Of a stretch of 64,000 nucleotides of DNA, positions 42,524-59,509 are shown in pieces. Numbering within the stretch: the first letter of the stretch is position 1; each line of letters starts with the position of its first letter. The notes below the pieces were generated by a model that was not told where the DNA came from, did no database searches, and saw only the letters and a list, made by a program, of their open reading frames with translations. Made by a program: the position numbers and the translations under genes. Origin of the DNA: a virus; the UHGV virus genome UHGV-1519562. One strand, given 5' to 3'.

Positions 42524-42605
42524 TGGAATGGTAGACATAGTAGCCTTAGAAGCTACCGCGTAAGCGTAAGAGTTCAAGTCTCTTATCCAACACCATTAGA
42601 CAGAC
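42524..42605 (+). tRNA. tRNA-Leu (anticodon UAG), class II
   Basis: acceptor GTTGGAT/ATCCAAC, anticodon stem GTAGC/GCTAC, loop CTTAGAA, long variable arm, T-arm AAGAG/TTCAAGT/CTCTT, CCA. Confidence 0.75.
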
Positions 42606-42720
42606 ACAGCAATCTTTATACAAGTAACGACATGCGGGTTCGATTCCTGTCTTTACGCATCTGTAAAGTAGCCTATTGGTAAGGTATTTATTTTGTTTAA
42701 AGCTGTCTAGTAAATCTCAA
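42606..42720 (+). ncRNA. tRNA-like element with permuted (Y-RNA/YrlA-like) topology
   Basis: order: stem strand AGACAG (42609-42614), T-arm GCGGG/TTCGATT/CCTGT (42644-42660), acceptor 3' strand CTTTACG, 4-nt loop, acceptor 5' strand TGTAAAG, UA, D-arm GCCT/ATTGGTA/AGGT, closing strand CTGTCT (42713-42718). Confidence 0.4.
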
Positions 42721-42852
42721 TTTGAAAAATAAAAAAAATTATGATATAATATTTATAGAAAGTTGAGGTTGATTTAATGTTTTACTGGGATTCCTTTGAT
42801 TGTGAAATTCAGTCTGATGAAATTGGTAGTATTACTAATCAGGAGAATGAAT

Positions 42853-43014
42853 ATGAAGAAACAGAAGAACAAGAATTTATGGGCGAAAAAGAGTGGCGAT
42901 GAACTTCAAGAGTATTTACAATTTCGCCGCAGAGGTAGTAAAGTAAAACCTAAAAAGGGCAAAGGTTCCTTTAAAAGAAAAAAAGAAATTTGGATCCATA
43001 GCGTAATTGGTTAG
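42853..43014 (+). CDS. small very basic protein (hypothetical); 3' end overlaps tRNA-Asn
   Basis: ATG 42853 after AGGAG; K/R-rich 53-aa product; overlap with the tRNA makes coding status uncertain. Confidence 0.3.
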   Translation: MKKQKNKNLWAKKSGDELQEYLQFRRRGSKVKPKKGKGSFKRKKEIWIHSVIG

Positions 43015-43058
43015 CGCAACGGACTGTTAATCCGTGGGTTGTTCGTTCAAGTCGAACT
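42982..43058 (+). tRNA. tRNA-Asn (anticodon GUU)
   Basis: acceptor GGATCCA/TGGATCC, D-arm GCGT/AATTGGTTA/GCGC, anticodon stem ACGGA/TCCGT, loop CTGTTAA, T-arm GTTCG/TTCAAGT/CGAAC, G, CCA. Confidence 0.85.
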
Positions 43059-43081
43059 GGATCCGCCATATATTTTAATTA

Positions 43082-43157
43082 GCTCCTATCGACAAGTTGG
43101 TTAAGTCATTAGCCCTTCAAGCTAGAGTCGCGGGATCGTAGCCCGCTAGGAGTACCA
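43082..43157 (+). tRNA. tRNA-like, anticodon UUC (Glu) with atypical T-loop and C33
   Basis: acceptor GCTCCTA/TAGGAGT, anticodon stem TTAGC/GCTAG, loop CCTTCAA, T-arm GCGGG/ATCGTAG/CCCGC, A, CCA. Confidence 0.45.
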
Positions 43158-43243
43158 TAATGAAAGACACATACAGCAATTTATTTAACATTATGAAAAA
43201 ATGGCAGAAAATTTTTATATAGGTGTCTTGTTTATATATTGCA

Positions 43244-43294
43244 GGCAGGTTAAAGCCCTGTGCGTCGCTGGTTCAAATCCAGCCTGTGATACCA
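43244..43294 (+). pseudogene. 3' two-thirds of a tRNA (anticodon arm, T-arm, acceptor 3' strand, CCA) without a cognate 5' part
   Basis: anticodon stem GCAGG/CCTGT, T-arm GCTGG/TTCAAAT/CCAGC, CTGTGAT-A-CCA; no D-arm or complementary acceptor strand within 60 nt upstream. Confidence 0.4.
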
Positions 43295-43295
43295 T

Positions 43296-43368
43296 TGCGG
43301 AGTAGAGAAACGGTTATCTCGCAACCCTCATAAGGTTGAGAAAGGTGGTTCGACTCCACCCTCTCGCA
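43296..43368 (+). tRNA. tRNA-like, anticodon CAU (Met/Ile2-type), acceptor stem poorly paired
   Basis: D-arm GAGA/AACGGTTA/TCTC, anticodon stem CAACC/GGTTG, loop CTCATAA, T-arm GGTGG/TTCGACT/CCACC; acceptor strands mostly non-complementary. Confidence 0.4.
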
Positions 43369-43490
43369 GAGACATAATCAACCACCTCCACGCGGTATGT
43401 CTTGGGTAAAGCGAACGGTTGAATGATTTTGGGTACATTTGGATAATTTAGTAGCCAAAAAAACTCCATAATATAATGGAGGGATGTATA

Positions 43491-43952
43491 ATGAGTTATA
43501 TTTATAGAATTATTAATAATATAAACGATAAGGTTTATATTGGAAAAACTGCTTTTGATATTTCAAAACGATTCAAAGAGCATTGTAATGATGCTTTTAA
43601 GAAAACAGAAGAAAAAAGACCATTATATGCGACAATGCGTAAATATGGGATAGAGCATTTTACAATAGAACAAATTGAAGAGTGCTCTGACGCTGCGGCC
43701 GCAGACAGAGAAGCCTATTGGATTAGTATGTATTCTGCTTATGAAAAAGGATATAATGCGACTCTTGGTGGCGATGGTAAATTTTTATATGACCACAAAG
43801 CAATTGCTTTGCGACTTCAAGAACATCCATATTCTCAAGATGTAGCAAAGAAGTTTGGATGTTGTGTTGATACAGTAAGAAATATTGCTAATCAATATGG
43901 TATTTCATTATTAGTCAATAATGGCCATAAAAAAAACTATTTCTGCTTATAG
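43491..43952 (+). CDS. GIY-YIG homing endonuclease (catalytic domain plus first DNA-binding module)
   Basis: YIYRIINNINDKVYIGKT...RFKEH...YN.TLGG GIY-YIG signature; ATG 43491 after GGAGGG. Confidence 0.8.
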   Translation: MSYIYRIINNINDKVYIGKTAFDISKRFKEHCNDAFKKTEEKRPLYATMRKYGIEHFTIEQIEECSDAAAADREAYWISMYSAYEKGYNATLGGDGKFLYDHKAIALRLQEHPYSQDVAKKFGCCVDTVRNIANQYGISLLVNNGHKKNYFCL

Positions 43953-44124
43953 TAAAAGCGGTGTTTTAATAAAAACTTTTGAATCTACCTCAGAAGCAGC
44001 TCAGTGGTGTTATGATAATCAAAAATGTGCCACTTTGCACTCTGGTGTTAGAAGCCATATAGCACAATGTGCTAATGGGATTCGTAAATCTGCATATAGT
44101 TATATATGGAAATATGAAAATTAA
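43921..44124 (+). CDS. C-terminal DNA-binding module of the GIY-YIG endonuclease, in a different frame
   Basis: ...IAQCANGIRKSAYSYIWKYEN resembles the C-terminal module of Seg/I-TevI-like endonucleases; frame changes at an A8 run around 43926-43933. Confidence 0.55.
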   Translation: MAIKKTISAYSKSGVLIKTFESTSEAAQWCYDNQKCATLHSGVRSHIAQCANGIRKSAYSYIWKYEN

Positions 44125-44157
44125 AAATATAGACTCATACAGCAAAAATTCTTTAAT

Positions 44158-44230
44158 TCTAAAATAGTCAAAAGGTTAAGACATCACTCTTGAAAAAGTG
44201 AAAATATGGGTTCGATTCCCATTTCTAGGT
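44158..44230 (+). tRNA. tRNA-like with 8-nt anticodon loop CTTGAAAA
   Basis: acceptor TCTAAAA/TTCTAGG (one A-C mismatch), D-arm GTC/AAAAGGTTAA/GAC, anticodon stem TCACT/AGTGA, T-arm ATGGG/TTCGATT/CCCAT; flanked by TAGACTC (44121) / GAGTCTA (44237). Confidence 0.4.
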
Positions 44231-44446
44231 TTAAAAGAGTCTAGTTAAAAATTAAATATAGAAAGGAGAGTTGCTTTATGGATTTGGATGATATGATTTT
44301 TTCTGATGAAGTAATTATTATTAGTGATAGATAATTATTTCTAATTTATATGGAAATGTACTCAATGTTGGCAAAGAGGACGATTTGCTAAATCGTTAGG
44401 TCTATGAGAATAGGCGAGTGGGGTCGGCACCCACCGTTTCCGCCAA

Positions 44447-44517
44447 GAGAATGTGGTGTAATCTGGTAACACGCTAACTTTGGGAGCTAGAGTCGCAGTT
44501 CAAATCTGACATTTTCT
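44447..44517 (+). tRNA. degenerate tRNA-like (anticodon UGG-like), weak T-stem
   Basis: acceptor GAGAATG/CATTTTC, D-arm GTGT/AATCTGGTA/ACAC, loop TTTGGGA; T-stem only 3 bp. Confidence 0.3.
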
Positions 44518-44760
44518 ACCATTTAGACACATACAGCAATTTTATAATACTGATATTATAATTTGTGGCTCGCTGTGGCCCTATTAACAGCTCCATTTAA
44601 TGAAAAAGTATGTCAATGATTTATATTATCTTTTGCGAAAATTTCTTTAATATAATGAGACTTACAAGAAATTTTTTGTGTCTAGTTTTTCTTATTTTAT
44701 CCTTTCTTTCTTCTTTATAAGATGCTTTCAGCAATAATTATTACAAATATATTTTATTAG

Positions 44761-44856
44761 GTTTATTAAAATAGTATATATTATAGCAAATATATTTCTA
44801 TAAAGTTTATTAAAATACTATATAGTAAATATATTTCTATAAGGTTTATTAATAGC
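44761..44856. repeat. AT-rich tandem repeat (about 2.5 copies of an about 40-bp unit) upstream of tRNA-Gln
   Basis: GTTTATTAAAATA(G/C)TATATA..AG.AAATATATTTCTATAA repeated from 44761 and 44805, partial copy from 44844. Confidence 0.6.
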
Positions 44857-44866
44857 ATCTTGATAT

Positions 44867-44942
44867 AGCGGCATAGTCAAGTGGTTAAGACATACGGCTT
44901 TGACCCGTATATCCGTTGGTTCAAATCCAACTGCCGCTGCCA
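44867..44942 (+). tRNA. tRNA-Gln (anticodon UUG)
   Basis: acceptor AGCGGCA/TGCCGCT, anticodon stem TACGG/CCGTA, loop CTTTGAC, T-arm GTTGG/TTCAAAT/CCAAC, G, CCA. Confidence 0.8.
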
Positions 44943-44989
44943 CTTAGCTATTTTAAGTAGCTTACTTTTAAAACTCCCCCTTTCTGAAA

Positions 44990-45024
44990 AATACCTCAAG
45001 TTTTAAACTTGAGGTATTTTTTTA
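44990..45024 (+). terminator. intrinsic terminator after the first tRNA block
   Basis: ATACCTCAAG TTTTAA ACTTGAGGTAT hairpin plus T7 run. Confidence 0.7.
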
Positions 45025-45177
45025 TGCAGAAAACAGGCCGGCGCGGGCACGGGCAAATTAAAATGGAGTTTAGTAATTTTTTTCTTGGTCAAAGATATTT
45101 TAAGAATTTACTTAAATTTTAAAAAAAATAGAAGGGATAAATTTAAACTAAACTTTTAAAAGAAAGGAGTAATTTAA

Positions 45178-45447
45178 ATGATTACTATAGATAGTAAATT
45201 TAATTTAGGTGGAAAAGCTTATGGAACTATTAGACTTCTTTGTGATACAAAAGCTGATATACCTAATTTAGATAATTATAAGAATTACGCCACAGGAAGT
45301 GAAGCTTTAGTTATCTCTACCTCAGAAAGATATATGTTAAATAGTTCAAAAGAATGGATTTTACAAAAAAATTCTGGCGGAAGTGGTGGCGGAGATTCAC
45401 CTTCACCTGACAATACTTACATATATGATGGTGGAGAAGTAACTTAA
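45178..45447 (+). CDS. hypothetical protein (Gly/Ser-rich C-terminus)
   Basis: 89-aa ORF with AAAGGAG RBS at the start of the tail-fibre block. Confidence 0.5.
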   Translation: MITIDSKFNLGGKAYGTIRLLCDTKADIPNLDNYKNYATGSEALVISTSERYMLNSSKEWILQKNSGGSGGGDSPSPDNTYIYDGGEVT

Positions 45448-45506
45448 CTTCTTTTCTATTTTACATATATTAACTATTTTTTAAAGAAAGGAGTTAATTA
45501 TATTAA

Positions 45507-46739
45507 ATGGCTGAAGTTATTTTAAATACTATTTTCCAAATTAGACGTGGTTCTAAAACTGCTTTATCTAATAAAAATTTATTATTAAGATATGGCGAAC
45601 CTTGTTATGAGTACCCTGAAAAAGCAGGAGAATCAGGAAAACTAAAAATTGGTGATGGTGTAACTCGTTATAATGATTTAAAATATATTACTGAGAATAT
45701 AGTTCTTCCAGAAGAAACGGCTAAATTTACTGGCGTACAAGAAACTTTACCAGATCCCGCAAGTGTAAAAGAAAATACTTTTTGTATTGTCAAAGGTGTT
45801 TTATATATACAAACAAAAGGCGACTGGGTTCCTGCAAGCGCGTCTCAAGAAGTTATAAAAGATTCTTCTGAAGAGCAAAGTTCTTGTACTATTGATGGTA
45901 AAAATTATGCAACAATAGAAGAAGCAATTGCGGCTGCCTCTCCTACTGATACTATTACTATTACAAAAAATTTATCTACTATTGAAATTAATAAACAAAT
46001 TTCTTTAGACTTAAATTCTGCTTATATTTTAAATAATGATAAAACACCAATAACAGTAGATAGCAATGGAATAGTAACTCTAAAAGGTGAAGGAACAGTA
46101 GAGTGCAATAAACATGCTACTCCTGTGTTATCTAATGATGGAACTACTATCATTGAGAATGGTTCTTATCTTAAATCTATTGATGAAAAAAACAATGGTT
46201 TTTATGTAGTAGTAAATCATGGTGATTTAAATATTAAAGGCGGCGTTTTTAGCTCTCCTGGCGATTTATCTAGCATGATAGAAAATGGCTATACTGATTA
46301 TAATGCCCAATATATAGAAGGAACTAATAAACAATATCCTTCTCTTACTATTGATGGTGGTACTTTTATTAGTAAATTTTATATTATCAAAAATGATGAT
46401 AATTCTAAAGCTATATTGAATAATGGTAACTTTTTTGGAACTATTTTACATAATGGTTTTGAATTAACCATTAATGATGGTGTTTTTTCTATTGATGATG
46501 GAAGTTATAATCTAAGAGTTAGAAAATTAAATGATAATATAAATAAAGCTACGACCTATATTAATGGCGGCACCTTTGATTCTAATGGAGAATCTAATTT
46601 TAAAATAGATGATGAAACCGCACAAATAATTATTAAAGGTGGTAAATTTAATCATCAAGTTCCTGAAAAATATTTGTTGGACGGATATGTTCAAAAATAT
46701 AAGGATGGATATTATATAATAAGTAAGGAAGGAGAATAA
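45507..46739 (+). CDS. putative tail fibre / receptor-binding protein
   Basis: 410 aa; N-terminal RRG...LL.YGEP.Y......KIGDGVT.YNDL.Y motif shared with the 47130 ORF; Gly/Asn/Thr-rich repetitive C-terminal part. Confidence 0.55.
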   Translation: MAEVILNTIFQIRRGSKTALSNKNLLLRYGEPCYEYPEKAGESGKLKIGDGVTRYNDLKYITENIVLPEETAKFTGVQETLPDPASVKENTFCIVKGVLYIQTKGDWVPASASQEVIKDSSEEQSSCTIDGKNYATIEEAIAAASPTDTITITKNLSTIEINKQISLDLNSAYILNNDKTPITVDSNGIVTLKGEGTVECNKHATPVLSNDGTTIIENGSYLKSIDEKNNGFYVVVNHGDLNIKGGVFSSPGDLSSMIENGYTDYNAQYIEGTNKQYPSLTIDGGTFISKFYIIKNDDNSKAILNNGNFFGTILHNGFELTINDGVFSIDDGSYNLRVRKLNDNINKATTYINGGTFDSNGESNFKIDDETAQIIIKGGKFNHQVPEKYLLDGYVQKYKDGYYIISKEGE

Positions 46740-46742
46740 CAT

Positions 46743-47108
46743 ATGGGTTTTAATGTTGCTTATGTTCCCAAAAACAAAATAAAAAGTAGTATCGCTCAAA
46801 ATGTTATTCCTAAAGAAACTCTTATTATAACAACAGATGAGAATACTGAAACTTTTTATTATGATGATAAAGGTAAAATAAAAAATATTTCAATTAGAAT
46901 GTCATTTAGTTCTTATACAGAAGCTAGAACTTGGATCGCGCAAAATGATTATTATATTGGAAAAGTTATTACTGTTTTAAATAATGGAAAATGGATTCCT
47001 TATTTAGTAGAAAAAAATCAAATTCTTTCTGAATTACCAATGAAAGCGGAAGTTATTACTACTAATGACACTGTTGTTTTAGATGGTGGTTCTGCTCCTA
47101 CAGAATAA
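46743..47108 (+). CDS. hypothetical protein (tail-associated by position)
   Basis: 121-aa ORF between fibre-like genes. Confidence 0.45.
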   Translation: MGFNVAYVPKNKIKSSIAQNVIPKETLIITTDENTETFYYDDKGKIKNISIRMSFSSYTEARTWIAQNDYYIGKVITVLNNGKWIPYLVEKNQILSELPMKAEVITTNDTVVLDGGSAPTE

Positions 47109-47129
47109 GTAAGGAGGAAAGAATAATTA

Positions 47130-47636
47130 ATGGAAAAAATAGTAAATTCAATTTTAAAGTTAAGACGAGATAATGACTATAATTATCAAAAGATAGGGAA
47201 TAAATTTATTCCTGAAAAAGGGGAAGTTTGCTTAGTAGACACAAGTAATAAAGGTTTGTGTGCTGTTGTTGGAGATGGACAAACTTCTTTTAATGAATTA
47301 GAGTATGTTAATACTATTTTTGAAATTGTTAAATTTATTAACAATAAAATTTATGATATTAATGATAATTCAATTGAATTAAAGCCTAATTCTAATAAAC
47401 TTTATATTGATGTTGATAATGTCAATGACTTATATTATTATAATGGCATTGATTTTATTATAATAAATTCTCAAATACCAAAAGCGTCTAGTGAAACTGC
47501 CGGTATATTAAAATTATATGAAACAACAGGCCAAAATACCGATGGTACTATGACGCAAAAGGCAATAACAGATGAACTTAAACATAAAATAAGTGCTTCT
47601 GTTAATTTAGAGAATGAAACTGTCATTTTTATATAA
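47130..47636 (+). CDS. putative tail fibre protein (paralog of the 45507 N-terminal domain)
   Basis: LRRDN...KGEVCLVDT...GDGQTSFNELEYV similar to the 45507 ORF N-terminus. Confidence 0.5.
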   Translation: MEKIVNSILKLRRDNDYNYQKIGNKFIPEKGEVCLVDTSNKGLCAVVGDGQTSFNELEYVNTIFEIVKFINNKIYDINDNSIELKPNSNKLYIDVDNVNDLYYYNGIDFIIINSQIPKASSETAGILKLYETTGQNTDGTMTQKAITDELKHKISASVNLENETVIFI

Positions 47637-47657
47637 TTATAGGAGGAAATAAAATTT

Positions 47658-48869
47658 ATGGCTACAAAAATTTTCAACCCCGTGAATATTCCTGTTATTT
47701 CTAAGTTGACTATCGGTGATAAGACCTATTACCTGAAGGACGCTGAAGTTCGTGCTCTATTAGAGACTCTTGGCAACGCTGCTCAGAAAGATGTGGCTGC
47801 TGGCGTTTCTGCTGAAGAGCAGGGCTTAGTCACTGGCGCTCAGGTTCAAGCTGCCATTGCTAATTTGACTGGTGCTATGCACTTCGTTGGTGTTAAGGAA
47901 ACTTTACCTGAGACTGCTAAAGATGGCGATGTTGTTATCATTGGTGTTAAAGAGTATGTCTATGCTAATAATGATTGGCATGAGCTTGGCGATGAGACCT
48001 TGTATGCTTTGAAGACCTTTAAGATTGGTACTCAGGATCTTTCTGGTACTTTCTCTTTGGATACTTTAAAGACTGATTTAGGTCTTGGTGCTTTAGCTTA
48101 TAAGAGTTCTGCCACTGGCACTGTTGCTGGTCAAACTATTACTGGCGTTAAGGCTACTGGTACTTCTGCTGGTAGTATTGAGGTTGGTTTAACCCAGACT
48201 TCTACTGCTGCTACTTTAACCAAGAGTGATTATACTCCTTCTGGTGATGTTACTGGTAGTGTGACTGCTGCTGGTTCTGTTAGTATTGCTAAGGATGCTG
48301 ATAATGGTACTCAGATTTCTGGTAGCGTTTCTGCTCCTACTGTGACTATTACTCCTAACACTGATACTATCAAGAAGGTTACTTCTGTTGGTACTTTGCC
48401 TACCAAGGCTGCTGACCTCTTTACTGCTAATGGTGATGATACCTTTACAGCTGGTTCTCAGGTTGCATGGAGTGCTAATGTCGATGATGCATCTGAGACT
48501 TTGAGTTTCTCCTTCACTACTAATACTCTACCCACCTTCAAGCAGGGCGCTAAAGCTTCTTATACTGAGGGTACTTTCGATGCAGGTACGCTTCCTGAAT
48601 TGGCAGCTGAAGGTACCACTGTTATGACTGGCGTTAAGAGTGCAGAGGCTTCTGCTCCTGTGTTCACTGGCGATAAGTTTGCAGCTTCCTTCGCTGGTGC
48701 TTCTGCTGATATTACTGCTACTTTTGCTGGTGAGAAAACCTCTGTGGTTTCTGGTGTTAATTACGATAAGGCTACTGTTGATACCTCTACGACTAAGTTT
48801 ACTGGTGCTGCTATGGAATTGGATGTTGGTGATATTGCAGTTGCCGCCAAGGATGTTACTGTCCAGTAA
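47658..48869 (+). CDS. putative tail fibre protein with Gly/Thr/Ala/Ser-rich repeats
   Basis: 403 aa; N-terminal ...TIGDKTYYLKDAEVRAL shared with the 48896 ORF; visibly GC-richer codon choice (GCT/GGT/ACT) than neighbours. Confidence 0.55.
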   Translation: MATKIFNPVNIPVISKLTIGDKTYYLKDAEVRALLETLGNAAQKDVAAGVSAEEQGLVTGAQVQAAIANLTGAMHFVGVKETLPETAKDGDVVIIGVKEYVYANNDWHELGDETLYALKTFKIGTQDLSGTFSLDTLKTDLGLGALAYKSSATGTVAGQTITGVKATGTSAGSIEVGLTQTSTAATLTKSDYTPSGDVTGSVTAAGSVSIAKDADNGTQISGSVSAPTVTITPNTDTIKKVTSVGTLPTKAADLFTANGDDTFTAGSQVAWSANVDDASETLSFSFTTNTLPTFKQGAKASYTEGTFDAGTLPELAAEGTTVMTGVKSAEASAPVFTGDKFAASFAGASADITATFAGEKTSVVSGVNYDKATVDTSTTKFTGAAMELDVGDIAVAAKDVTVQ

Positions 48870-48895
48870 TTAATTTTTAAAAGGATGGTGAGTAA

Positions 48896-49366
48896 ATGGC
48901 AAACAAGTTGATTTCTAAAATCAATGTCGGTGGCGCCATTTACTACCTTAAAGATGAAGAAGTTAGAGCTGCGGTTTCTACATTGCAAACCGCAGTTGCT
49001 TCTTCATTAGTTTTCAAAGGTGTAATATCAAGTGCTGCCGGAATCACTGGGTTAAAAAATTATAAAATTGGTTGGACTTATAAAGCAAATGCTGATTTTA
49101 CGATTACTTCTATTGGTAAAATAGAAGCGGGAGATATGATAATTTGTATTAGTGATTATAGTTCAAACTACAAAGCAAGTGATTGGACAGTGGTTCAAAA
49201 TAATGTGGATACTATGACTGGAGCGACTTCCTCTACAAACGGTACTAGAGGTTTAGTTCCAGCACCTACTAAAACTGATATTTCTAAATTTCTTCGTGGC
49301 GATGGTACTTGGGCAGATTCTAGTGCTGAATCAACATGGGGCAGAATTTCAGATTTATTAAATTAA
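48896..49366 (+). CDS. putative tail fibre protein (paralog of the 47658 N-terminus)
   Basis: ...NVGGAIYYLKDEEVRAA... N-terminus similar to the preceding gene; terminator follows. Confidence 0.5.
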   Translation: MANKLISKINVGGAIYYLKDEEVRAAVSTLQTAVASSLVFKGVISSAAGITGLKNYKIGWTYKANADFTITSIGKIEAGDMIICISDYSSNYKASDWTVVQNNVDTMTGATSSTNGTRGLVPAPTKTDISKFLRGDGTWADSSAESTWGRISDLLN

Positions 49367-49370
49367 TTTA

Positions 49371-49408
49371 ATGGGTAGAAGGTTAATCTTCTACCCATTT
49401 TTTTTATT
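49371..49408 (+). terminator. intrinsic terminator
   Basis: ATGGGTAGAAGG TTAA TCTTCTACCCAT hairpin plus T8 run. Confidence 0.7.
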
Positions 49409-49472
49409 ATTGGAATTTTTTAAAAATTTATATTATAATATATATAGAAAATTAAAAAAGGAGATAATAAAT

Positions 49473-49811
49473 ATGAAATATGGTCGGTATAAGATTTTTA
49501 GTAATTACACTGATATGGTGATTGCAGAATCCACTTTTGCTAAGCAGCCTGTTAGAGGTGTAGCACGATGTGATATTAAGAGTGGAGATGTTTTTGACTT
49601 GGAGAAGGGAATTGGCCTTGCTATTGCTCGATGTGATGCGAAGATCGCGGCTAAGAGACTTAAAACTGCAAAAGAGAAATTCGCAAATGCAAATTCTAAG
49701 GTTGAAGAAGCAGAAAAATTTATGAATAAAATGAAGGATTATTTCAATAAAAGCATGGGCGAATATGATGCTTGCATGGATATTCTTGCAGCGGTTGAAG
49801 ATAATATGTAA
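49473..49811 (+). CDS. hypothetical protein
   Basis: ATG 49473 after AAAAGGAG; conserved AT-rich promoter at 49415-49450. Confidence 0.55.
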   Translation: MKYGRYKIFSNYTDMVIAESTFAKQPVRGVARCDIKSGDVFDLEKGIGLAIARCDAKIAAKRLKTAKEKFANANSKVEEAEKFMNKMKDYFNKSMGEYDACMDILAAVEDNM

Positions 49812-49835
49812 ATAGGAGGGAGTTTCAGAAAAATT

Positions 49836-51080
49836 ATGAGTTATAATTATGATGAAACTTTTAAATATCCTATTAATGCGTGTTTGAATTTAACAGATAA
49901 TTGTAATCTACAATGCAAATATTGTTTCGTACATCAAAAGCCGCATTATATGGATTTAAAAATGGCTAAAAATGCGATAGATTTTTTAGCTAAAAATTTA
50001 GTAAAATATAAAGAGCTTACTGGAAAAGAAAATCAAAAGAATGAAGTAACATTTTTTGGTGGTGAACCAACTCTTTTGTGGGAACAAATTATTGTCCCTA
50101 TTGTTGAATATACCAAAGAGAAATATCCTAATACCTTTCATTTTGATATGACCACAAATGGGACTCTTCTAAATGAAGAAAGAGTTAAATTTTGTTATGA
50201 TAATGGTATTAAACTTCTTCTTTCTATTGATGGAATAAAAGAAGTACAGGATTATAATCGGCCTTGTCGAGATACAAATTTAAGTAGTTTTGATTTAGTT
50301 GGGAAGAATATTCCTATTATTCTTAAATATTTTCCTAATACTACTTTTCGCTCTACTCTTTACCAGCCAACAATAGATAAAATGTTTGAATCATTTTTGT
50401 TCGCAGAAAAGTGTGGTTTTAGACAAATTTTTATGTGTCCAAATGCTAGAGAAGAATGGTCAGAAGAAAATATTAAAATTTTAAGAGAAGAAATTGGGAA
50501 AATTATTACTTATACGACTATGAATTACATTGAAGGGAAAATTCCCATTCTTTATTCTAATTTAGATAGTGCTTTTGATGATATTATTGATATAGACCTT
50601 CAAACTTATACTAAAAATTTTTCTGATATATCCCCTTCTCGCGGAGTTCGCAGATGTGGTTTAGGAACAGGTTCTATTTCTATCGCTTATGATGGTAAAA
50701 TTTATGGATGTCAAGAGCAAGATTCAAGAGATGAAAATGATTATTTTTATATTGGGGATATTTTTGATGGTATCAATATAGAAAAACATAAGAAAATGCT
50801 AACTGATTATAATGAAGCAATAACTATAATTAGTTCTAAAAAAGAATTATGTAGTAATTGTAAGCTACGACAAGCTTGTATTCATAAAGTTTGTCCTTCT
50901 GTTTCGCATGATATGTTTAATAATTTTTTCATTAGACCATCTATTGATTGTATTTACAATCAAATTCTTCTTGAAGGTGGAATTTTAATGATGAAAATTC
51001 TTGTCGAACAAGAGAAAAATCAATTTTTTAAAGAATATTTAGATTATAAATTAGAAGGTGGTGAATCTATTGGGTTGTGA
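49836..51080 (+). CDS. radical SAM enzyme with SPASM-type C-terminal domain
   Basis: CNLQCKYC (CxxxCxxC) cluster near the N-terminus, TFFGGEPTL and TTNGTLL core motifs, C-terminal CSNCKLRQACIHKVC plus additional Cys pairs. Confidence 0.8.
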   Translation: MSYNYDETFKYPINACLNLTDNCNLQCKYCFVHQKPHYMDLKMAKNAIDFLAKNLVKYKELTGKENQKNEVTFFGGEPTLLWEQIIVPIVEYTKEKYPNTFHFDMTTNGTLLNEERVKFCYDNGIKLLLSIDGIKEVQDYNRPCRDTNLSSFDLVGKNIPIILKYFPNTTFRSTLYQPTIDKMFESFLFAEKCGFRQIFMCPNAREEWSEENIKILREEIGKIITYTTMNYIEGKIPILYSNLDSAFDDIIDIDLQTYTKNFSDISPSRGVRRCGLGTGSISIAYDGKIYGCQEQDSRDENDYFYIGDIFDGINIEKHKKMLTDYNEAITIISSKKELCSNCKLRQACIHKVCPSVSHDMFNNFFIRPSIDCIYNQILLEGGILMMKILVEQEKNQFFKEYLDYKLEGGESIGL

Positions 51081-51714
51081 AAAATGTAATTCAGGATGTC
51101 AATCTTGTAATAGTTGCGAATCATGTGATTCTTGTGAAAAATGTGATTCTGGTTGCATGAAAGGTGATAAATGCTCCGGCTGTAATGATTGTCAATCTTT
51201 TTGTGAAGATGGCCATCAAAGGGTAGGTAGTTTTAGTTGGGGAGCTTGTACTGCAAGAGGACAACAATTTTTTACATTAAGTACATGGAATAGTATTTAT
51301 AAATTTATTTGTAATGCTTATGCTAAAGGTACTAAAAAAAATGGTGGAAGTCCTGGTATCAGTAGTGGTGGAATTACTCAATCTTCTATGAGAGCAATAG
51401 ATTTTAATGCAGTTAGTAGAGCATTAAATGGTTTGGGCGACCATAGTGGTACTGCATCTAGTGTTTCTCCAGGAGATGACCTTTTAGGTTCTTATTTTTC
51501 TGGTTTAGAGACTGCGGCAAATACATTAAAATATAAAAAAGATCAATGTAATAAATGTAATGCAAATTGTGATGTTGCTTGTGATACTTGTGAAAGCTGC
51601 GATAGAGGTTGTGAAAAATGTAACAGAGGTAATTGTGGAAGATGTAATTCTGGTTGTCAAAGAAATTCAAGCACTTCGTGTGCCGATCCTCCTTCCTGTA
51701 CAAGTGGGCAATAA
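51058..51714 (+). CDS. cysteine-rich protein (candidate substrate of the adjacent radical SAM enzyme)
   Basis: 218 aa; about 14 Cys in C-x2-C / C-x3-C repeats at each end (CEKCNSGCQSCNSCESCDSCEKC..., ...CDTCESCDRGCEKCNRGNCGRCNSGC) around a Gly/Ser-rich core; overlaps the radical SAM stop by 23 nt. Confidence 0.6.
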   Translation: MVNLLGCEKCNSGCQSCNSCESCDSCEKCDSGCMKGDKCSGCNDCQSFCEDGHQRVGSFSWGACTARGQQFFTLSTWNSIYKFICNAYAKGTKKNGGSPGISSGGITQSSMRAIDFNAVSRALNGLGDHSGTASSVSPGDDLLGSYFSGLETAANTLKYKKDQCNKCNANCDVACDTCESCDRGCEKCNRGNCGRCNSGCQRNSSTSCADPPSCTSGQ

Positions 51715-51859
51715 TTGAAAATTTAATAAAAATATATTATAATATATATAGAAAGTTAAGAAAAGAGTAATAAAAATTTCTTGAACAAAATAAATTAATT
51801 TGAAAATTTAAAAAATAAATGATATAATATATATAGAAAGTTAAGAGAGGAGAAAATTT

Positions 51860-52054
51860 ATGAATAAGATTATTTTTAAAGCTAAGAATTGGACTATGAC
51901 TTTTAGAACTAGACAGCAGGCCCTTGATTTTATCCGTAAAAATTCCATTAATCCTTATACTGCCAATATTTTGGTTCTTATTGGTACTCAGGATGTATTT
52001 TATTTGGGTTCTCCTCGTGCAGATCAGTATTTTGGACTGAAAAGAAAAAATTGA
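51860..52054 (+). CDS. hypothetical protein
   Basis: 64-aa ORF with GAGAGGAG RBS. Confidence 0.5.
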   Translation: MNKIIFKAKNWTMTFRTRQQALDFIRKNSINPYTANILVLIGTQDVFYLGSPRADQYFGLKRKN

Positions 52055-52087
52055 AAATTTAAAAAAATATGATATAATATTTAAGGA

Positions 52088-52152
52088 AAGACTTATACAG
52101 CAAATAAAGCTTAAAAGCACTTGACTGGTAATCAAGAAGAAAAATGAGTCTT
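52088..52152 (+). repeat. conserved spacer hairpin (AGACNNATACAGCAA family)
   Basis: AAGACTT ATACAGCAA ... AGTCTT; related copies at 42607, 43166, 44119, 44519, 52806, 53030. Confidence 0.5.
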
Positions 52153-52166
52153 GCTTAAATATTCAT

Positions 52167-52252
52167 GTGGGCGTGATGAAACAGGAAAACATATCGCACT
52201 TAAAATGCGCTGCTAATCTAGCTTGTGGGTTCGAGTCCCATCGCCCACACCA
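52167..52252 (+). tRNA. tRNA-Leu (anticodon UAA), class II
   Basis: acceptor GTGGGCG/CGCCCAC, loop CTTAAAA, variable arm hairpin GCTA/ATC/TAGC, T-arm GTGGG/TTCGAGT/CCCAT, A, CCA; D-arm atypical. Confidence 0.6.
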
Positions 52253-52317
52253 TCTTTAAAACTGATACTCTTTACTATTAGTTTTGAAGATAACAATGAA
52301 CTTGAGTTTACTAATAT

Positions 52318-52394
52318 GCATCTGTAACTCAACTGGATAGAGTAACTGCCTTCTAAGCAGTAAGCCAGGGGTTCGAGTCCCTTCAGGCGTACCA
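52318..52394 (+). tRNA. tRNA-Arg (anticodon UCU)
   Basis: D-arm ACTC/AACTGGATA/GAGT, anticodon stem ACTGC/GCAGT, loop CTTCTAA, T-arm AGGGG/TTCGAGT/CCCTT, acceptor CAGGCGT-A-CCA (one A-C mismatch). Confidence 0.75.
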
Positions 52395-52579
52395 AGCAGA
52401 ATTATAATAGATAACAAAAGGAAATAGCTGATGTGAAAGGCATCTTGTCTTGCTGACATGACAATAAACTTTGAACGGACGTATAATGCGTATCGTGCCT
52501 GCGGGTGTAGAGTCAGAAAAGTAGGGGAATAATCGAGGAGCAGCTATAGGTGAGGCCCCACCTCCACCTTCCTTAATAT

Positions 52580-52668
52580 GGGGCAATGGCAGAGTTTGGC
52601 TTATTGTACTCGTCTTGAAAACGAGCAAACTAGCAATAGTTTCACTGGTTCAAATCCAGTTTGCCCCG
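52580..52668 (+). tRNA. tRNA-Ser (anticodon UGA), class II
   Basis: acceptor GGGGCAA/TTGCCCC, anticodon stem CTCGT/ACGAG, loop CTTGAAA, 18-nt variable arm, T-arm ACTGG/TTCAAAT/CCAGT; no encoded CCA. Confidence 0.75.
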
Positions 52669-52729
52669 CGGTATCAAGATAGTTACCTTCACGTGGTGAT
52701 ACTGTTTTTACTAAAACTATCAACTATTT

Positions 52730-52803
52730 GTAGATATAGTTTAATGATAGAATTCTGGACTTCCACTCCAGCGATGCGGGTTTGATTCCCGTTATCTACT
52801 CCA
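52730..52803 (+). tRNA. tRNA-Gly (anticodon UCC)
   Basis: acceptor GTAGATA/TATCTAC, anticodon stem CTGGA/TCCAG, loop CTTCCAC, T-arm GCGGG/TTTGATT/CCCGT, T, CCA. Confidence 0.75.
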
Positions 52804-52805
52804 TA

Positions 52806-52858
52806 AAGATACTCACAGCAATTTATTTTTTATAATGGGTATAAAAAAATAAAGTATC
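52806..52858 (+). repeat. conserved spacer hairpin (AGACNNATACAGCAA family)
   Basis: AAGATACT CACAGCAATTTATTTTTTATAATGGG... AGTATCTT; contains a TATAAT box that may serve the downstream tRNA-Thr. Confidence 0.5.
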
Positions 52859-52866
52859 TTGTATTT

Positions 52867-52942
52867 GCTAGTGTAGCACAATAGGTAGTGCAGCGGCCTT
52901 GTAAACCGCAGGTTAAGAGTTCAAGTCTCTTCGCTAGCTCCA
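52867..52942 (+). tRNA. tRNA-Thr (anticodon UGU)
   Basis: acceptor GCTAGTG/CGCTAGC, D-arm GCAC/AATAGGTA/GTGC, loop CTTGTAA, T-arm AAGAG/TTCAAGT/CTCTT, T, CCA. Confidence 0.8.
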
Positions 52943-52944
52943 AT

Positions 52945-53020
52945 GGTTCGCTAGTTCATTAGGTAGAACACTTGCCTTTTAAGCAAGATGTGCTGGGTTC
53001 AAATCCCAGGCGAGCCACCA
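52945..53020 (+). tRNA. tRNA-Lys (anticodon UUU)
   Basis: acceptor GGTTCGC/GCGAGCC, D-arm GTTC/ATTAGGTA/GAAC, anticodon stem CTTGC/GCAAG, loop CTTTTAA, T-arm CTGGG/TTCAAAT/CCCAG, A, CCA. Confidence 0.85.
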
Positions 53021-53395
53021 TTAGTCTTATCATACAGACGTAAAATAAATGAGTACCCCAGATAATGCTGAACTGGGTATCCGGGTATCGGGAGAATTAG
53101 TCTGGTAACTGTTGAAGCGACGATACTGCGTGACCAGGCATAAGGGCGACCTAAGTCGTTAGCTATGGGTAAACAGGTTGATAGCCGCATAGTAAAATGT
53201 TTCCTTGCGTCATTAAAATGCAAAGCGTTATAGGAGAGATGGCGGAGCATTACTCATCTCCACTCCTTCTACTACGAGAAGTAGAAAATCAAGGCTTCTG
53301 AGAAATGCTAATGAGAATGGTCAACCTCTGATTAAAAAAGGACTAAAGCTAGCTTGGGTTTTAGGTTATCCTCCTTACGAGGGAAAACCTTATTT
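53021..53395 (+). other. 375-nt non-coding, hairpin-rich region between tRNA-Lys and tRNA-Leu(CAA) (candidate structured RNA)
   Basis: no ORF longer than about 20 codons on the plus strand; GC-rich stems (CCCCAGATAATGCTGAACTGGG, GAGATGGCGGAGCATTACTCATCTC) and a GGTTATCCTCCTTA element; begins with the spacer motif variant AGTCTTATCATACAGACG. Confidence 0.35.
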
Positions 53396-53534: not shown

Positions 53535-55058
53535 ATGGAAAATAAGATGCTTAATATTTTGAAGGAAAAGAATACTCATTCTATCACTGAGAATAGCGGT
53601 TTGACTTATAATTCTACGATGAATGGAATTATGGATTTGTTTGCTCTTGGTGGCGCTTATCGAAATCGCTCAGATGATGATTGTATTTTTCTTTTTAAAA
53701 AGGCTTTTGAGGAAGATATTTCTTATGCCTTGAAGTGTCTCTTTTATTTGCGAGATGTACGTGGTGGACAGGGAGAACGCAGATTTTTTAAGGTTGTAAC
53801 TTCTTGGTTGGCAGTTAATCATATCGAGGAAATGCGTAGAAATCTGAAGTATATTCCTGAGTATGGTCGCTGGGATGATTTGTATGCTTTTGTTGATACT
53901 CCGCTTGAGGCAGATGCTTTTAAGACTATGTATCATCAGCTTGCTCTTGATGTTCAGTGTAAAACTCCTTCTCTTTTGGCTAAGTGGTTGAAGTCTGAAA
54001 ATACTTCTTCTGCGGAATCTCGTATGCTTGGAACTAAAACCAGAATGGCCTTTAATATGTCTCCTAAGCAGTATCGCAAAACTCTCTCTATTCTTCGTGA
54101 AAGAATTAGAGTTTTGGAAAGATTGATGAGTGAAAATCGTTGGGATGAAATTGAATTTGATAAGATTCCTTCTAAGGCAGGTCTAAAGTATCGCAATGCT
54201 TTCGCAAAGCACGATATTGAAAGAGAAAAGTCTAATAAGGTAACTTATGAAGAGTTTGTAAAGGATTCTAATACTAAGGTCAATGCTGATACTCTGAATC
54301 CCGCAGATGTAGTTCATGCTGTTATGTCTAAATTTCCTTATTATAGAGGAAATTTTAATGGAACCGATGTAGAGAGAGCTGCACTCAATAAGTATTGGGA
54401 TAATCTAAAGGATTATTTTAATAATGCTGTTTTTGACGGTGTTGCTGTCGTTGATACTTCTGGTTCTATGTGTGGTTTTTATGGTAGTGAGAAAACTATT
54501 GCACCTATTGATGTAGCTATTTCTCTTGGTATGTATTGTGCTGAGAAGTGTAATCCCAATTCTCCCTGGTATGGACATTATATTACTTTTTCTCGAACTG
54601 CAAGATTGGTGCCTGTTGAAGGTATTGATTTTGTTGATAAGGTGCGTCGAATTTATCAAAAGAATCTTTGTGAGAATACCGACATTAAAAGTATTTTTGA
54701 TTTGCTATTGAGTAATGCTATTAAATATAATATTCCTAATGAAGAAATGCCTAAAAACATTGTAATCATTAGTGATATGGAATTTGATTATTGCGCTGGT
54801 TATTATAATAGTGATGAATATAGATCTGAAATGGAAAAGATTATGCAGGTTTGGAACTCTCATGGTTACACTACTCCGCATTTGATTTTCTGGAATGTTG
54901 ACGCTCGAAATGATAATATTCCCATGAAGATGAAAGATGGTATTACTTTTATTTCTGGCTACTCTGCGGTAACTTATGAAATGTTGATGACTGGTAAAAC
55001 TGGTTTTGATTTGGTTTTGGAAAAGTTGAATAGCAAGAGATATGAAGTAATCAAGTAA
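53535..55058 (+). CDS. vWA (MIDAS) domain protein, DUF2828-like; possible Ro60/Rsr-like RNA-binding protein
   Basis: 507 aa; MIDAS-like VAVVDTSGSM in the C-terminal half after a roughly 300-aa mainly helical N-terminal region (architecture of TROVE plus vWA proteins); family assignment is from memory. Confidence 0.5.
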   Translation: MENKMLNILKEKNTHSITENSGLTYNSTMNGIMDLFALGGAYRNRSDDDCIFLFKKAFEEDISYALKCLFYLRDVRGGQGERRFFKVVTSWLAVNHIEEMRRNLKYIPEYGRWDDLYAFVDTPLEADAFKTMYHQLALDVQCKTPSLLAKWLKSENTSSAESRMLGTKTRMAFNMSPKQYRKTLSILRERIRVLERLMSENRWDEIEFDKIPSKAGLKYRNAFAKHDIEREKSNKVTYEEFVKDSNTKVNADTLNPADVVHAVMSKFPYYRGNFNGTDVERAALNKYWDNLKDYFNNAVFDGVAVVDTSGSMCGFYGSEKTIAPIDVAISLGMYCAEKCNPNSPWYGHYITFSRTARLVPVEGIDFVDKVRRIYQKNLCENTDIKSIFDLLLSNAIKYNIPNEEMPKNIVIISDMEFDYCAGYYNSDEYRSEMEKIMQVWNSHGYTTPHLIFWNVDARNDNIPMKMKDGITFISGYSAVTYEMLMTGKTGFDLVLEKLNSKRYEVIK

Positions 55059-57507: not shown

Positions 57508-58254
57508 GTGAAACAGTATTTTATCACTGGGGATACGCACGGTAAAAATTATCAACGTATTTGTCAAATGATTGAACAATATTCTTGCTCTCCTAAAAAT
57601 TCTTCTCTTATTATTCTTGGAGACGCAGGATTTAATTTTTGGTTAGATAAAAAAGAGCAAAAGTGGAAGAAAAGAGTAAATGATTTAGGATATTCGATTT
57701 ATTGTGTGCGGGGAAACCATGAAGAGCATCCTAAAAATTTACCTAATATTCAAGAAATTTGGGATGCAGAAATTCAAGGTTGGATTTATATTCAACCAGA
57801 TTTTCCTAACCTTAAATATTTGATTGACGGAAATACTTACTACTTTAATAGTCATTCTGCTATTGTTCTTGGTGGTGCTTATTCGGTTGATAAACATTAT
57901 AGATTAATGCAGGCTACTTTGAATCGTACCGATGATTGGACTGGTTGGTTTCCTGATGAACAATTAACACAGCAAGAGATGTTAGATATTAACAATAAAG
58001 TGATTAATCATCATTATGATTTAGTTCTATCTCATACTTGTCCTTTTGATTGGCGTCCTACTGCTTTATTTCTTCCTGGAATTGATCAATCTACTATTGA
58101 TAATACTATGGAAATTTGGATGAATGATTTAAAAGATAAGTTTTCTTGGAATAATTGGTTCTGGGGACACTTTCACGCAAATACAGATTACTATGATGGT
58201 AGATATATGTTATTTGAAAATATTTATAATTTAGAGGATTTAATTAATGATTGA
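57508..58254 (+). CDS. calcineurin-like metallophosphoesterase
   Basis: GDTHGK, GDAGFN, GNHEEH, WGHFH metal-binding motifs. Confidence 0.7.
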   Translation: MKQYFITGDTHGKNYQRICQMIEQYSCSPKNSSLIILGDAGFNFWLDKKEQKWKKRVNDLGYSIYCVRGNHEEHPKNLPNIQEIWDAEIQGWIYIQPDFPNLKYLIDGNTYYFNSHSAIVLGGAYSVDKHYRLMQATLNRTDDWTGWFPDEQLTQQEMLDINNKVINHHYDLVLSHTCPFDWRPTALFLPGIDQSTIDNTMEIWMNDLKDKFSWNNWFWGHFHANTDYYDGRYMLFENIYNLEDLIND

Positions 58255-58576
58255 TGGCGTTACAGTTTTAAAACAATATGATTTTACTTTGGACGCAAAT
58301 TTAATTATTATTCTTAGTATTTTAACTGGTATATTGTTTTTCTTTTTAGTTAAAATGCTTTGGTTTGATATGAAACCTGAAGGAAATTTAATACCTCTTA
58401 TATGGGGAGTAACGATTGGTTTATTAGCTGCTTTTTATTTAAAATCTGATGATTCTTCTCCTTGTCGTTATGATGTTATTATAGATGATTCTGTTTCAGT
58501 TAATGAATTATATAAAGATTATGAAATATTAAAAGTAGAAGGAAAAATTTATACAATTACTTTAAGGGAGAAATAA
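58247..58576 (+). CDS. small membrane protein
   Basis: two hydrophobic helices; overlaps previous stop. Confidence 0.5.
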   Translation: MIDGVTVLKQYDFTLDANLIIILSILTGILFFFLVKMLWFDMKPEGNLIPLIWGVTIGLLAAFYLKSDDSSPCRYDVIIDDSVSVNELYKDYEILKVEGKIYTITLREK

Positions 58577-58578
58577 TA

Positions 58579-59097
58579 ATGACTAATAAATATGAAGCAC
58601 GAATTTTCCCCAATGGACGTATCGCGTTTTATAAAAGCAAAGATTTAGAAGATGCCATCAAAGCTGATAAAGAATTGTTGATTGTATGTAATTGTCATAC
58701 TGGTGGAAGCACTTTAGCTATGGGCGCCCACAAAATGCCCGATCGGAATAATCCTGATGAAACTATCACATTTTTATACAACTCAAGCATCAGCCGTCAA
58801 GTATTTACAGGAGAAGAAATGAATCGTTTTTATAAGGTTATTTTTACTCCTGGCGAAAGGATTTTTGATAATAACTCTGACTATGCTACACGATATGACT
58901 ATGGCCACCATTGTTTCTATAATGGCAGCAAAAAAATGAAAGTAAATGAGGAAATGACTGCGCGTTATCTCAATAAAGAACAAGTAAAAGCAATGATTGG
59001 AATTGGTGTTTTTACTGAAAAGGCATTGGATTACTGTATTGAAGCAATAAGTAATAAAAATGCTATCGAAGATTCTGTAAACGAATGTTCTAGTTAA
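58579..59097 (+). CDS. hypothetical protein
   Basis: 172-aa ORF with GGGAG RBS. Confidence 0.55.
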   Translation: MTNKYEARIFPNGRIAFYKSKDLEDAIKADKELLIVCNCHTGGSTLAMGAHKMPDRNNPDETITFLYNSSISRQVFTGEEMNRFYKVIFTPGERIFDNNSDYATRYDYGHHCFYNGSKKMKVNEEMTARYLNKEQVKAMIGIGVFTEKALDYCIEAISNKNAIEDSVNECSS

Positions 59098-59229
59098 AAA
59101 GAAATTTATTTTAAATTTAAGGACAAAACTTTTAAAAGTTTTGTCATTAATTTATTTTTTTAAAAAAATATTATATAATATATATAGAAAGTTAAGGAAT
59201 AAATAAATAAGAAAGAGGTTGAAATTTTT

Positions 59230-59499: not shown

Positions 59500-59509
59500 A
59501 TAAAGGAGT

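Follow-up and report, generated by a model that had tools for sequence, protein, structure and literature searches.

The motif studied here is a short hairpin-forming sequence that recurs between the transfer RNA (tRNA) genes of the viral genome UHGV-1519562, of which we analysed a stretch of 64,000 nucleotides (nt), called the window below. It consists of a closing helix and an unpaired ACAGCAA core, is conserved throughout a large set of phage loci and is tightly linked to genes of the DUF2828 family. We consider it likely that the motif is the handle of a new family of Y-RNA-like small RNAs and that this handle is recognised by the neighbouring DUF2828 protein, whose predicted fold is Ro60-like. 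This RNA is described neither in Rfam 15 nor in the literature that we searched, which covered the DUF2828 family, Ro-like RNA-binding proteins and the motif string.

The window is AT-rich and phage-like. ARAGORN finds 16 tRNAs in it. All of them are on the plus strand, and they form two clusters (42.2-45.0 kb and 52.1-53.5 kb). A preliminary description of the sequence had proposed at least seven sites with a common spacer motif, most of them with a complementary strand downstream, and this first observation is largely right. With up to two mismatches allowed, the pattern AGACWYATACAGCAA has 6 matches in the window, where the expectation is 0.62, and a count of 6 was reached in none of 100 shuffles; the motif is thus indeed overrepresented. 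Five of the matches, at 42598, 43165, 44131, 44525 and 52089, are true sites, all of them on the plus strand. The sixth, at 49074, lies inside an open reading frame (ORF), has no partner strand and is probably due to chance. A further site at 52807 (AGATACTCACAGCAA) differs from the pattern at three positions and is nevertheless genuine, as the ACAGCAA core is there and the helix, AAGATACT/AGTATCTT, is fully compensated. Six of the seven proposed sites therefore stand, each with its complementary strand, and their positions needed corrections of 1-12 nt in some cases (for example, from 44119 to 44131 and from 44519 to 44525). The remaining one, at 53030 (TAGTCTTATCATACAGACG), was rejected: it lacks both the core and a partner strand, and a covariance model does not recover it.

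To define the elements, we used a descriptor that requires the ACAGCAA core, a 5' strand ending 1-3 nt before the core and a complement of 7 base pairs (bp) within 260 nt. In the window it yields six elements, all on the plus strand and within the tRNA clusters: E1 (42597-42710), E2 (43164-43230), E3 (44130-44244), E4 (44523-44685), E5 (52088-52153) and E6 (52806-52861). They span 55-163 nt and lie 0.7-11 kb upstream of the DUF2828 gene. The descriptor also gave one match per strand elsewhere in the window; these two do not have the handle signature and were taken as chance matches. The covariance model, R1, was built from short elements, with E2 (57.6 bits) and E6 (54.2 bits) among its training members. 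It found no extra copies in the window and matched E1, E3 and E4, which have long interiors, only partially. Since R1 cannot bridge the variable interiors, the descriptor was used in its place. Note that a hairpin at 43372-43407, after the tRNA-Met (AGACAUA...UAUGUCUUG), has a handle-like helix but was not counted, because it has no ACAGCAA and is outside the minimum-free-energy fold. This hairpin also has a trailing G and may be a decayed copy of the handle.

The closing helix of the handle has 7-9 bp and the form 5'-[A/U]AGRC-NNN / NNN-GYCU[U/A]-G-3', with ACAGCAA unpaired right above the 5' strand. The more general consensus is 5'-[A/U/G]-A-G-[A/G]-[C/G/U]-N-N-(N)-N-ACAGCAA-[A/U]UU, followed by the interior and by N-N-[G/C/A]-[U/C]-C-U-[U/A/C]-G-3'. 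In the minimum-free-energy structures calculated with RNAfold, the closing helix is present in all six elements of the window and ACAGCAA is largely unpaired.

Next, we asked whether the helix is maintained at the level of RNA or of DNA. We collected 80 loci on viral contigs by means of the neighbouring DUF2828 protein. In these loci the 7-bp closing helix is found at 208 of the 303 ACAGCAA sites on the strand of the gene, in comparison with 19 of 107 on the opposite strand, the latter being approximately the chance level. When each distinct site is paired with its own partner strand, 165 of 247 form the 7-bp helix; when the partners are swapped between sites, only 36-58 of 247 do. There are 102 distinct helix sequences. 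Sites that were chosen by sequence alone (AG-N6-ACAGCAA) mostly have a perfect partner as well, and a G follows the helix in 92% of them.

The pairs themselves vary in the way that is expected of a helix under selection for pairing. Pair 1 occurs as A-U, U-A or G-C, pair 4 as A-U, G-C or G·U and pair 5 as C-G, G-C or U-A, and pairs 6 and 7 occur as all four types; helix positions 2 and 3 (A-U and G-C) are nearly invariant. Among 35 short elements, five of the seven pairs are changed on both sides, with 44 such cells against 7.0 in shuffles. The covariation score of this set is 0.589, compared with 0.150 after shuffling (none of 500 shuffles reaches the observed score) and with at most 0.151 when the register is slid. 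With a stricter signature, the ratio of elements on the gene strand to elements on the other strand is 125:1 (in 1.4 Mb), 34:2 and 20:0 in three sets of loci. The strict strand bias, together with the bulge that is conserved on one side only and the G·U pairs, points to an RNA on the gene strand rather than a site in DNA. These observations indicate that the handle acts as RNA.

The second line of evidence is the linkage to DUF2828 genes. The handle adjoins DUF2828 homologs in most of about 115 metagenomic loci. Several loci that were first scored as free of the element carry the core variants UCAGCAA or GCAGCAA. The fraction of loci with an element is a lower bound, because the stricter filter undercounts (it misses, for example, E1 and E4). 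A scan of the viral contigs with the exact pattern gives mostly single chance matches and becomes informative only after the helix filter.

Furthermore, the handle lies beside the DUF2828 gene in all nine of the isolated phage lineages that we sampled, with or without tRNAs and either upstream or downstream of the gene. Upstream copies are found in Bacillus phage PBC2 (seven, spread through the tRNA cluster), Listeria phage P100 (three in tandem, in the order promoter, copies, gene gp165), Enterococcus phage TJE1 (two), Campylobacter phage CP30A (two) and Vibrio phage MS02 (three to four); in P100, CP30A and MS02 they directly adjoin the gene. Copies directly downstream of the gene are found in the GC-rich Mycobacterium phage Lolly9 (three in tandem right after gene 54, followed by a terminator), Staphylococcus phage SEP9 (three in tandem), the Escherichia coli Felixounavirus VpaE1 (four, among tRNAs) and Klebsiella phage phi1_175008 (one to three). 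The first 50 kb of phage T5 served as a negative control: the cluster of 25 tRNAs in it, which also holds several annotated stable RNAs, contains no handle, and no DUF2828 homolog is encoded in this DNA. DUF2828 is the sole neighbour common to all of the at least 12 lineages examined. In PBC2, P100, VpaE1 and phi1_175008, which belong to unrelated families (loci L236, L237, L242 and L245), the DUF2828 gene is at the edge of the main tRNA cluster or inside it. As a side observation, the GenBank records of PBC2 and P100 have tRNAs annotated opposite to the strand of the Rfam matches.

The linkage extends to bacterial chromosomes and metagenome-assembled genomes (MAGs), which we reached through distant DUF2828 homologs of 36-39% identity. 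In Enterococcus sp. LJL51, the stretch directly upstream of the gene holds two tandem handles together with a promoter and a tRNA-like sequence. This locus is flanked by dnaB, purA and degV on one side and by ABC-F and LevR-like genes on the other, and is therefore not a prophage. The handles are arranged alike in E. larvae and Enterococcus sp. BWR-S5. Three tandem handles directly precede the gene in an Oleincola MAG, where the third has the core CCAGCAA, and an Ornithospirochaeta MAG has three in the same position with the cores ACAGCAA or UGCAGCAA. Halobacillus rhizosphaerae (L227) has five handles. In the same Halobacillus locus, a skipping-rope RNA (Rfam RF02924, 63.7 bits, at 4088-4214) is found among the tRNAs and handles upstream of the DUF2828 homolog. 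Tandem copies that flank the DUF2828 gene with no tRNA nearby occur in Lolly9, SEP9, CP30A and the Enterococcus chromosomes.

In the window, the gene of the proposed partner (53535-55058, plus strand) follows directly after the second tRNA cluster. It encodes a protein of 507 amino acids with a vWA domain that carries a DxSxS MIDAS motif, and Pfam assigns to it only DUF2828 (1.9e-30) and DUF7788 (9.9e-39). Its predicted structure is a ring of HEAT repeats with a C-terminal vWA domain and MIDAS motif, that is, a Ro60-like fold. Some depositors have labelled DUF2828 homologs as "Ro-like RNA binding protein". The family is large: our search with the protein returned more than 8000 homologs, and 705 records of isolated phage genomes carry one, among them Felixounavirus phages and the Listeria biocontrol phages of the P100/A511 type. 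The P100 protein gp165 shares 33% identity with the window protein over 99% of its length.

While the handle is constant, what it carries is not. The interiors in the window range from 31 to about 135 nt and include plain hairpins, an anticodon-arm-like hairpin, a permuted tRNA-like module and a whole cloverleaf. E1 starts 1 nt past the CCA of a tRNA-Leu(UAG) and is closed by UAGACAG (42597-42603) and CUGUCUA (42703-42709), followed by the 3' G; its core is at 42606-42612. Its interior is the permuted tRNA-like module, in which a T-arm (GCGGGUUCGAUUCCUGU) is followed by a hairpin and then by a D-arm-like part (UAGCCUAUUGGUAAGGUA), an order typical of bacterial YrlA. E3, with the helix UAGACUC/GAGUCUA, a trailing G and the core at 44139-44145, holds a full cloverleaf at 44158-44230 (Rfam tRNA, 51.4 bits), which has an anticodon loop of 8 nt (CUUGAAAA) and no encoded CCA. 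The preliminary description had also proposed that two of the hairpins enclose tRNA-like modules, and E1 and E3 bear this out in both cases.

The other four elements have no tRNA-like domain. E2 begins 6 nt past a tRNA-Glu and has the helix AAGACAC/GUGUCUU with a trailing G, the core at 43173-43179 and an AU-rich hairpin of 43 nt as its interior. E4 begins 1 nt past a tRNA-Pro; it has the helix UUAGACACA/UGUGUCUAG, the core at 44533-44539 and an interior of about 135 nt with several hairpins, which are AU-rich. E5 (helix AAGACUUA/UGAGUCUU, then G; core at 52097-52103) carries an anticodon-arm-like hairpin, cuugaCUGGUAAucaag, with a stem of 5 bp and the 7-nt loop CUGGUAA. It is placed about 9 nt past the -10 box of a strong promoter and 14 nt ahead of a tRNA-Leu(UAA). 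E6 (helix AAGAUACU/AGUAUCUU, then G; core at 52815-52821) consists above the handle of a long AU hairpin, and is separated by 2 nt from a tRNA-Gly and by 6 nt from a tRNA-Thr. Note that in E6 both strands of the helix are altered together relative to the AAGACAC/GUGUCUU pair.

The locus L121 comes from a close relative whose DUF2828 protein is 97% identical and in which the handle elements are syntenic (for example, the counterpart of E4 is at 990-1152). The counterpart of E3 has kept the 8-nt loop, and its anticodon stem shows compensatory changes (UCACU/AGUGA versus UUACC/GGUAA). The counterpart of E6 has exactly the same helix and the core AUAGCAA, but in place of the long AU hairpin it carries one with the anticodon-like loop CUUUUAA. 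This supports the view that the handle stays fixed and that the cargo, which is often derived from tRNA, can be exchanged. A T-loop is present in 63 of the 169 distinct elements of the family. Among 66 short elements, 18 have a stem of 5 bp with a 7-nt loop of the form YU-NNN-RN; for the full set, the expectation from shuffles is about 5%. We keep the mimicry of anticodon loops as a lead and not as a finding, because only a minority of elements show it and because the count in the full set is inflated by T-loops.

How do these RNAs compare with known ones? In bacterial YrlA RNAs, the terminal stem contains the motif GNCGAAN0-1G, which is thought to bind Rsr, and the remainder is a tRNA-like domain made of T, AS and D parts (PMC4201824). 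They were found within 4 kb of Ro60 and on the same strand, and were sought only beside proteins annotated as TROVE (PMC4201824). In the Thermus phage phiLo, Ro60 binds two upstream Y-like RNAs with a CGAA motif (PMC12135203); in general, Y RNAs are encoded at most a few kb away from the Ro60 genes of bacteria and phages and in the same orientation (PMC4201824; PMC12135203). The handle RNAs resemble YrlA (RF02553), Yrn1 of D. radiodurans and Yrl1/Yrl2 of phiLo in that a stem of their paired ends carries a modular second domain that often mimics a tRNA. In all six folds of the window elements, the paired 5' and 3' ends form this terminal stem, with covariation. They also resemble Y RNAs in being encoded within a few kb of the gene for a ring-shaped protein of HEAT repeats and vWA, on the same strand, often in two to three copies and in some cases in phages.

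There are also differences. The handle has a basal helix of A-U and G-C pairs with the unpaired ACAGCAA instead of GNCGAAN0-1G or GGUCCGA; its conserved 5' strand is [A/U]AGRC-N3-4-ACAGCAA, with no CGAA motif. The protein belongs to DUF2828/DUF7788 in Pfam and not to TROVE, and resembles Ro60 at the level of the predicted fold only. Many copies of the handle have no tRNA-like domain at all, and the copies are interleaved with tRNA genes and reach six in the window and seven in PBC2. None of the elements reaches the Rfam gathering score of YrlA (69 bits). The best one in the window is E1, which aligns end to end (42604-42711, model positions 1-114) with 24.9 bits, below the threshold; the other five window elements have no match at E<=10, and nothing in six related loci reaches the gathering score. 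The middle element of Lolly9 matches YrlA with 37.7 bits, only over the tRNA-like core (model positions 23-89), with the Ro-binding stem unmatched. We keep the family apart from YrlA, because our tests found no copy of the defining Ro-binding motif and no score at the Rfam threshold. In both tRNA clusters, Rfam searches at the gathering thresholds and at E<=10 returned tRNAs and the one weak YrlA match, and no known ribozyme, riboswitch or phage RNA family.

Stable small RNAs in a phage tRNA cluster are also known from T4 (species 1 and 2). The record of phage T5 (NC_005859; L246) lists eight "stable RNAs with unknown functions" between the tRNAs at 28-41 kb, some of them tRNA-like. Like RNAI, RNAIII, RNA1 and RNA2 of T5, the handle RNAs are non-tRNA small RNAs located between phage tRNAs and co-transcribed with them. 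None of the T5 stable RNAs has the ACAGCAA handle.

The closest published parallel is the P100-like Listeria phage CKA15. The DUF2828 ortholog of this phage, CKA15_055, has Rsr as its top HHpred match and was detected in virions, and less than 2 kb upstream of its gene lie three very highly transcribed non-coding regions, suspected Y RNAs in the authors' view (PMC12282133). The gene family is the same as in the window, and so is the layout of a tRNA cluster, non-coding regions and the Ro-like gene. The difference is that no motif or structure was defined in that report (PMC12282133). We find three tandem handles at 25,218-25,621 of CKA15 (OR088597), between CKA15_056 and CKA15_055 and directly upstream of the latter. 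We infer that this block is one of the three abundant regions, other than the one for which coordinates were published.

The preferred reading can be put as the following mechanism. Each RNA would be closed by a helix of its own 5' and 3' ends, with an unpaired G 3' of the helix and the cargo above ACAGCAA. In the phage studied here, the six copies would be co-transcribed with the tRNAs. E1, E2, E4 and E6 begin 1-6 nt after a tRNA 3' end, and the distance to the next tRNA is 14 nt for E5 and 6 nt for E6. Because the elements abut tRNAs in this way, maturation of the adjacent tRNAs by ribonuclease P and the 3'-end processing enzymes probably frees them as discrete small RNAs. E5 probably starts from its own promoter instead: a strong sigma-70-type promoter (TTGAAA-16-TGnTATAAT) ends at 52078 (52051-52078, plus strand), which would set the transcription start at, or only a few nt from, the 5' end of the E5 helix. 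The handle is then the proposed binding site of the DUF2828/vWA protein. The resulting ribonucleoprotein particles (RNPs) would act on RNA, most plausibly in quality control, repair or protection of tRNAs and structured RNAs during infection, and would work alongside the products of the nearby RNA ligase and phosphoesterase genes.

A more specific and rather doubtful version is that the handle and the Ro60-like protein make up a modular display platform, on which phages, and some bacteria, would present interchangeable tRNA parts. The displayed cargo would be anticodon arms (for example of UUU, GUU or GGU), elbows of T- and D-arms or whole cloverleaves, and would serve as decoys, sensors or repair scaffolds against host defences that target tRNAs, such as anticodon nucleases. 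The cargo would be swapped fast between close relatives, as in E6 and its counterpart in L121. A function of the cargo as decoy is speculation.

Several observations weigh against the reading of the handle as the Y-RNA-like partner of a Ro60-like protein. The link between protein and RNA is one of guilt by association, and the handle is unlike the Ro60-binding motifs known from animals (GGUCCGA) and from bacteria (GNCGAAN0-1G; PMC4201824). The 507-amino-acid protein has no sequence match to TROVE in Pfam, a phmmer search of it against the PDB sequences gives nothing at E<=10, and the similarity of the predicted structure to the Ro60 fold is moderate (TM score 0.4-0.5). There are DUF2828 loci, such as L128, L138, L191 and L206, with no element in the DNA examined. 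The only published coordinates of an abundant CKA15 RNA (26,236-26,727) belong to another RNA, which has a length of about 490 nt. Single copies have weak thermodynamic z-scores, between -1.0 and -2.05 (E6 having -2.05). Finally, the sets for covariation were picked by requiring the helix, and the fact that 100% of their members are paired holds by construction; independent tests come only from the variety of pair types and from the controls by swapping and by strand.

The handle could, in place of a stand-alone RNA, be a cis-regulatory operator in the mRNA or operon of DUF2828, for example an autoregulatory site or an attenuator. In L228, L235, L232, P100, CP30A and MS02 there are two to three copies between a promoter and the start codon of the DUF2828 gene. 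We think this explanation improbable, as the copies are downstream of the gene in Lolly9, SEP9, VpaE1 and the Klebsiella phage, and in the window they are separated from the gene by 0.7-11 kb, with tRNAs, promoters and ORFs in between. In L228, furthermore, a terminator-shaped hairpin stands between the copies and the gene, and the cargo is made of tRNA-like modules.

Somewhat less probable still is that the hairpins are punctuation or processing signals of polycistronic tRNA precursors, read by an endoribonuclease of the host or phage, with no specific link to DUF2828. A role in tRNA processing had been one of the functions suggested at the outset, and the placement agrees with it: four window elements follow a tRNA 3' end at a distance of 1-6 nt and two precede a tRNA by 6-14 nt, and in related loci 44 of 207 elements begin no more than 10 nt behind a tRNA and 62 of 207 stop 3-20 nt short of one. 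Yet more than half of the elements are more than 100 nt from any tRNA, the tandem copies of Lolly9, SEP9, CP30A and the Enterococcus chromosomes stand beside DUF2828 with no tRNA nearby, the 25-tRNA cluster of T5 does without the motif, and the tRNA-like cargos are left unexplained. What survives of the suggestion is the release of the RNAs by maturation of neighbouring tRNAs, as proposed above, and not a role as signal.

With about the same small probability, the handle is read by another factor, such as an RNA ligase or repair enzyme, the host polynucleotide phosphorylase or a nuclease, and DUF2828 is merely co-inherited in an island of RNA repair genes. The neighbourhood of the DUF2828 gene lends itself to this idea. 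Downstream of it in the window, RNA-repair-type genes span 57508-60787 on the plus strand, with a metallophosphoesterase at 57508-58254 and an RNA-ligase-like protein at 59510-60787 (Pfam RNA_ligase, 26.3 bits, just below the cut-off of 27 bits), and in CKA15 (L239, 22218-28621, reverse complement) an RtcB-type "tRNA splicing ligase" is encoded 1.3 kb downstream of the Ro-like gene. Against it, DUF2828 alone is shared by all of the lineages, and the chromosomal locus of Enterococcus has no adjacent repair genes. In Salmonella, the arrangement rsr-yrlBA-rtcBA pairs a Ro-type gene with RNA repair genes, and the window and CKA15 resemble it in this respect. We regard the repair genes as context and not as a proven component.

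The functional guesses of the preliminary description were otherwise mostly not supported. It had placed -10-like boxes in the loops and considered cassettes of promoters and terminators for tRNA units. The promoter-like matches inside the loops agree with the consensus at 9 of 12 positions only, and shuffles yield them just as often; the strong promoters (11 of 12 positions) are outside the elements, and none of the terminator-like sites of the window (a GC-rich stem and a T-run) coincides with an element. That the arms are DNA inverted repeats, be it of such cassettes or as the footprint of a mobile tRNA cassette (similar to miniature inverted-repeat transposable elements or attC sites), is very improbable and already largely refuted: inverted arms do surround variable inserts, two of them tRNA-like, and E6 differs in its interior from the 97%-identical relative with unchanged arms, but it is the pairing and not the sequence of the arms that is kept (102 arm sequences, G·U pairs), the strand bias is nearly absolute (125:1), the conserved bulge is on one strand only, no target-site duplications were seen, and there is neither a terminator T-run nor a promoter signal above chance.

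Some further features of the window were noted. The strong promoter TTGAAA-N16/17-(TG)nTATAAT recurs at 42722-42750, 51715-51743, 51800-51828 and 52051-52078, usually trailed by a conserved AT(A/T)TATAGAAAGTT box, and looks like a phage-specific early or middle class. Between 43236 and 44124, about 820 nt are absent from L121. This block holds the tRNA-Met (43296-43367) and an ORF for a GIY-YIG homing endonuclease (43476-43952, Pfam 1.8e-13), whose end overlaps with the start of another ORF (43921-44124). At 43236-43295 there is a remnant of a tRNA(CAU), in which an internal deletion of 18 nt relative to L121 removes the region of the D-arm. The block looks like an insertion of a homing endonuclease that brought its own copy of the tRNA. 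AT-rich tandem repeats of about 38-40 nt (tatatttctataaRgtttattaaaatActatata) are found at 44740-44850, just upstream of a tRNA-Gln. Two stretches between tRNAs, at 52395-52580 and 53040-53390, are GC-richer, free of ORFs and look structured, with no Rfam match at E<=10. Possibly they encode additional non-coding RNAs similar to the very abundant transcript of about 490 nt that is found upstream of the orthologous gene in CKA15 (L239, 1895-2386).

The candidate RNA partner, which covaries and is defined by its sequence, gives the large and uncharacterised DUF2828 family a concrete biochemical hypothesis, namely that its members form RNPs of the Ro60 type, and suggests that the abundant non-coding transcripts next to the CKA15 gene include handle RNAs. 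If this is true, the principle of Ro60 and Y RNAs would extend to a second code of protein-RNA recognition that is unrelated in sequence, and the unannotated intergenic blocks in many phage tRNA clusters would be explained. Furthermore, the cargos made of tRNA parts raise a possible link to the conflict between phages and host defences over tRNAs.

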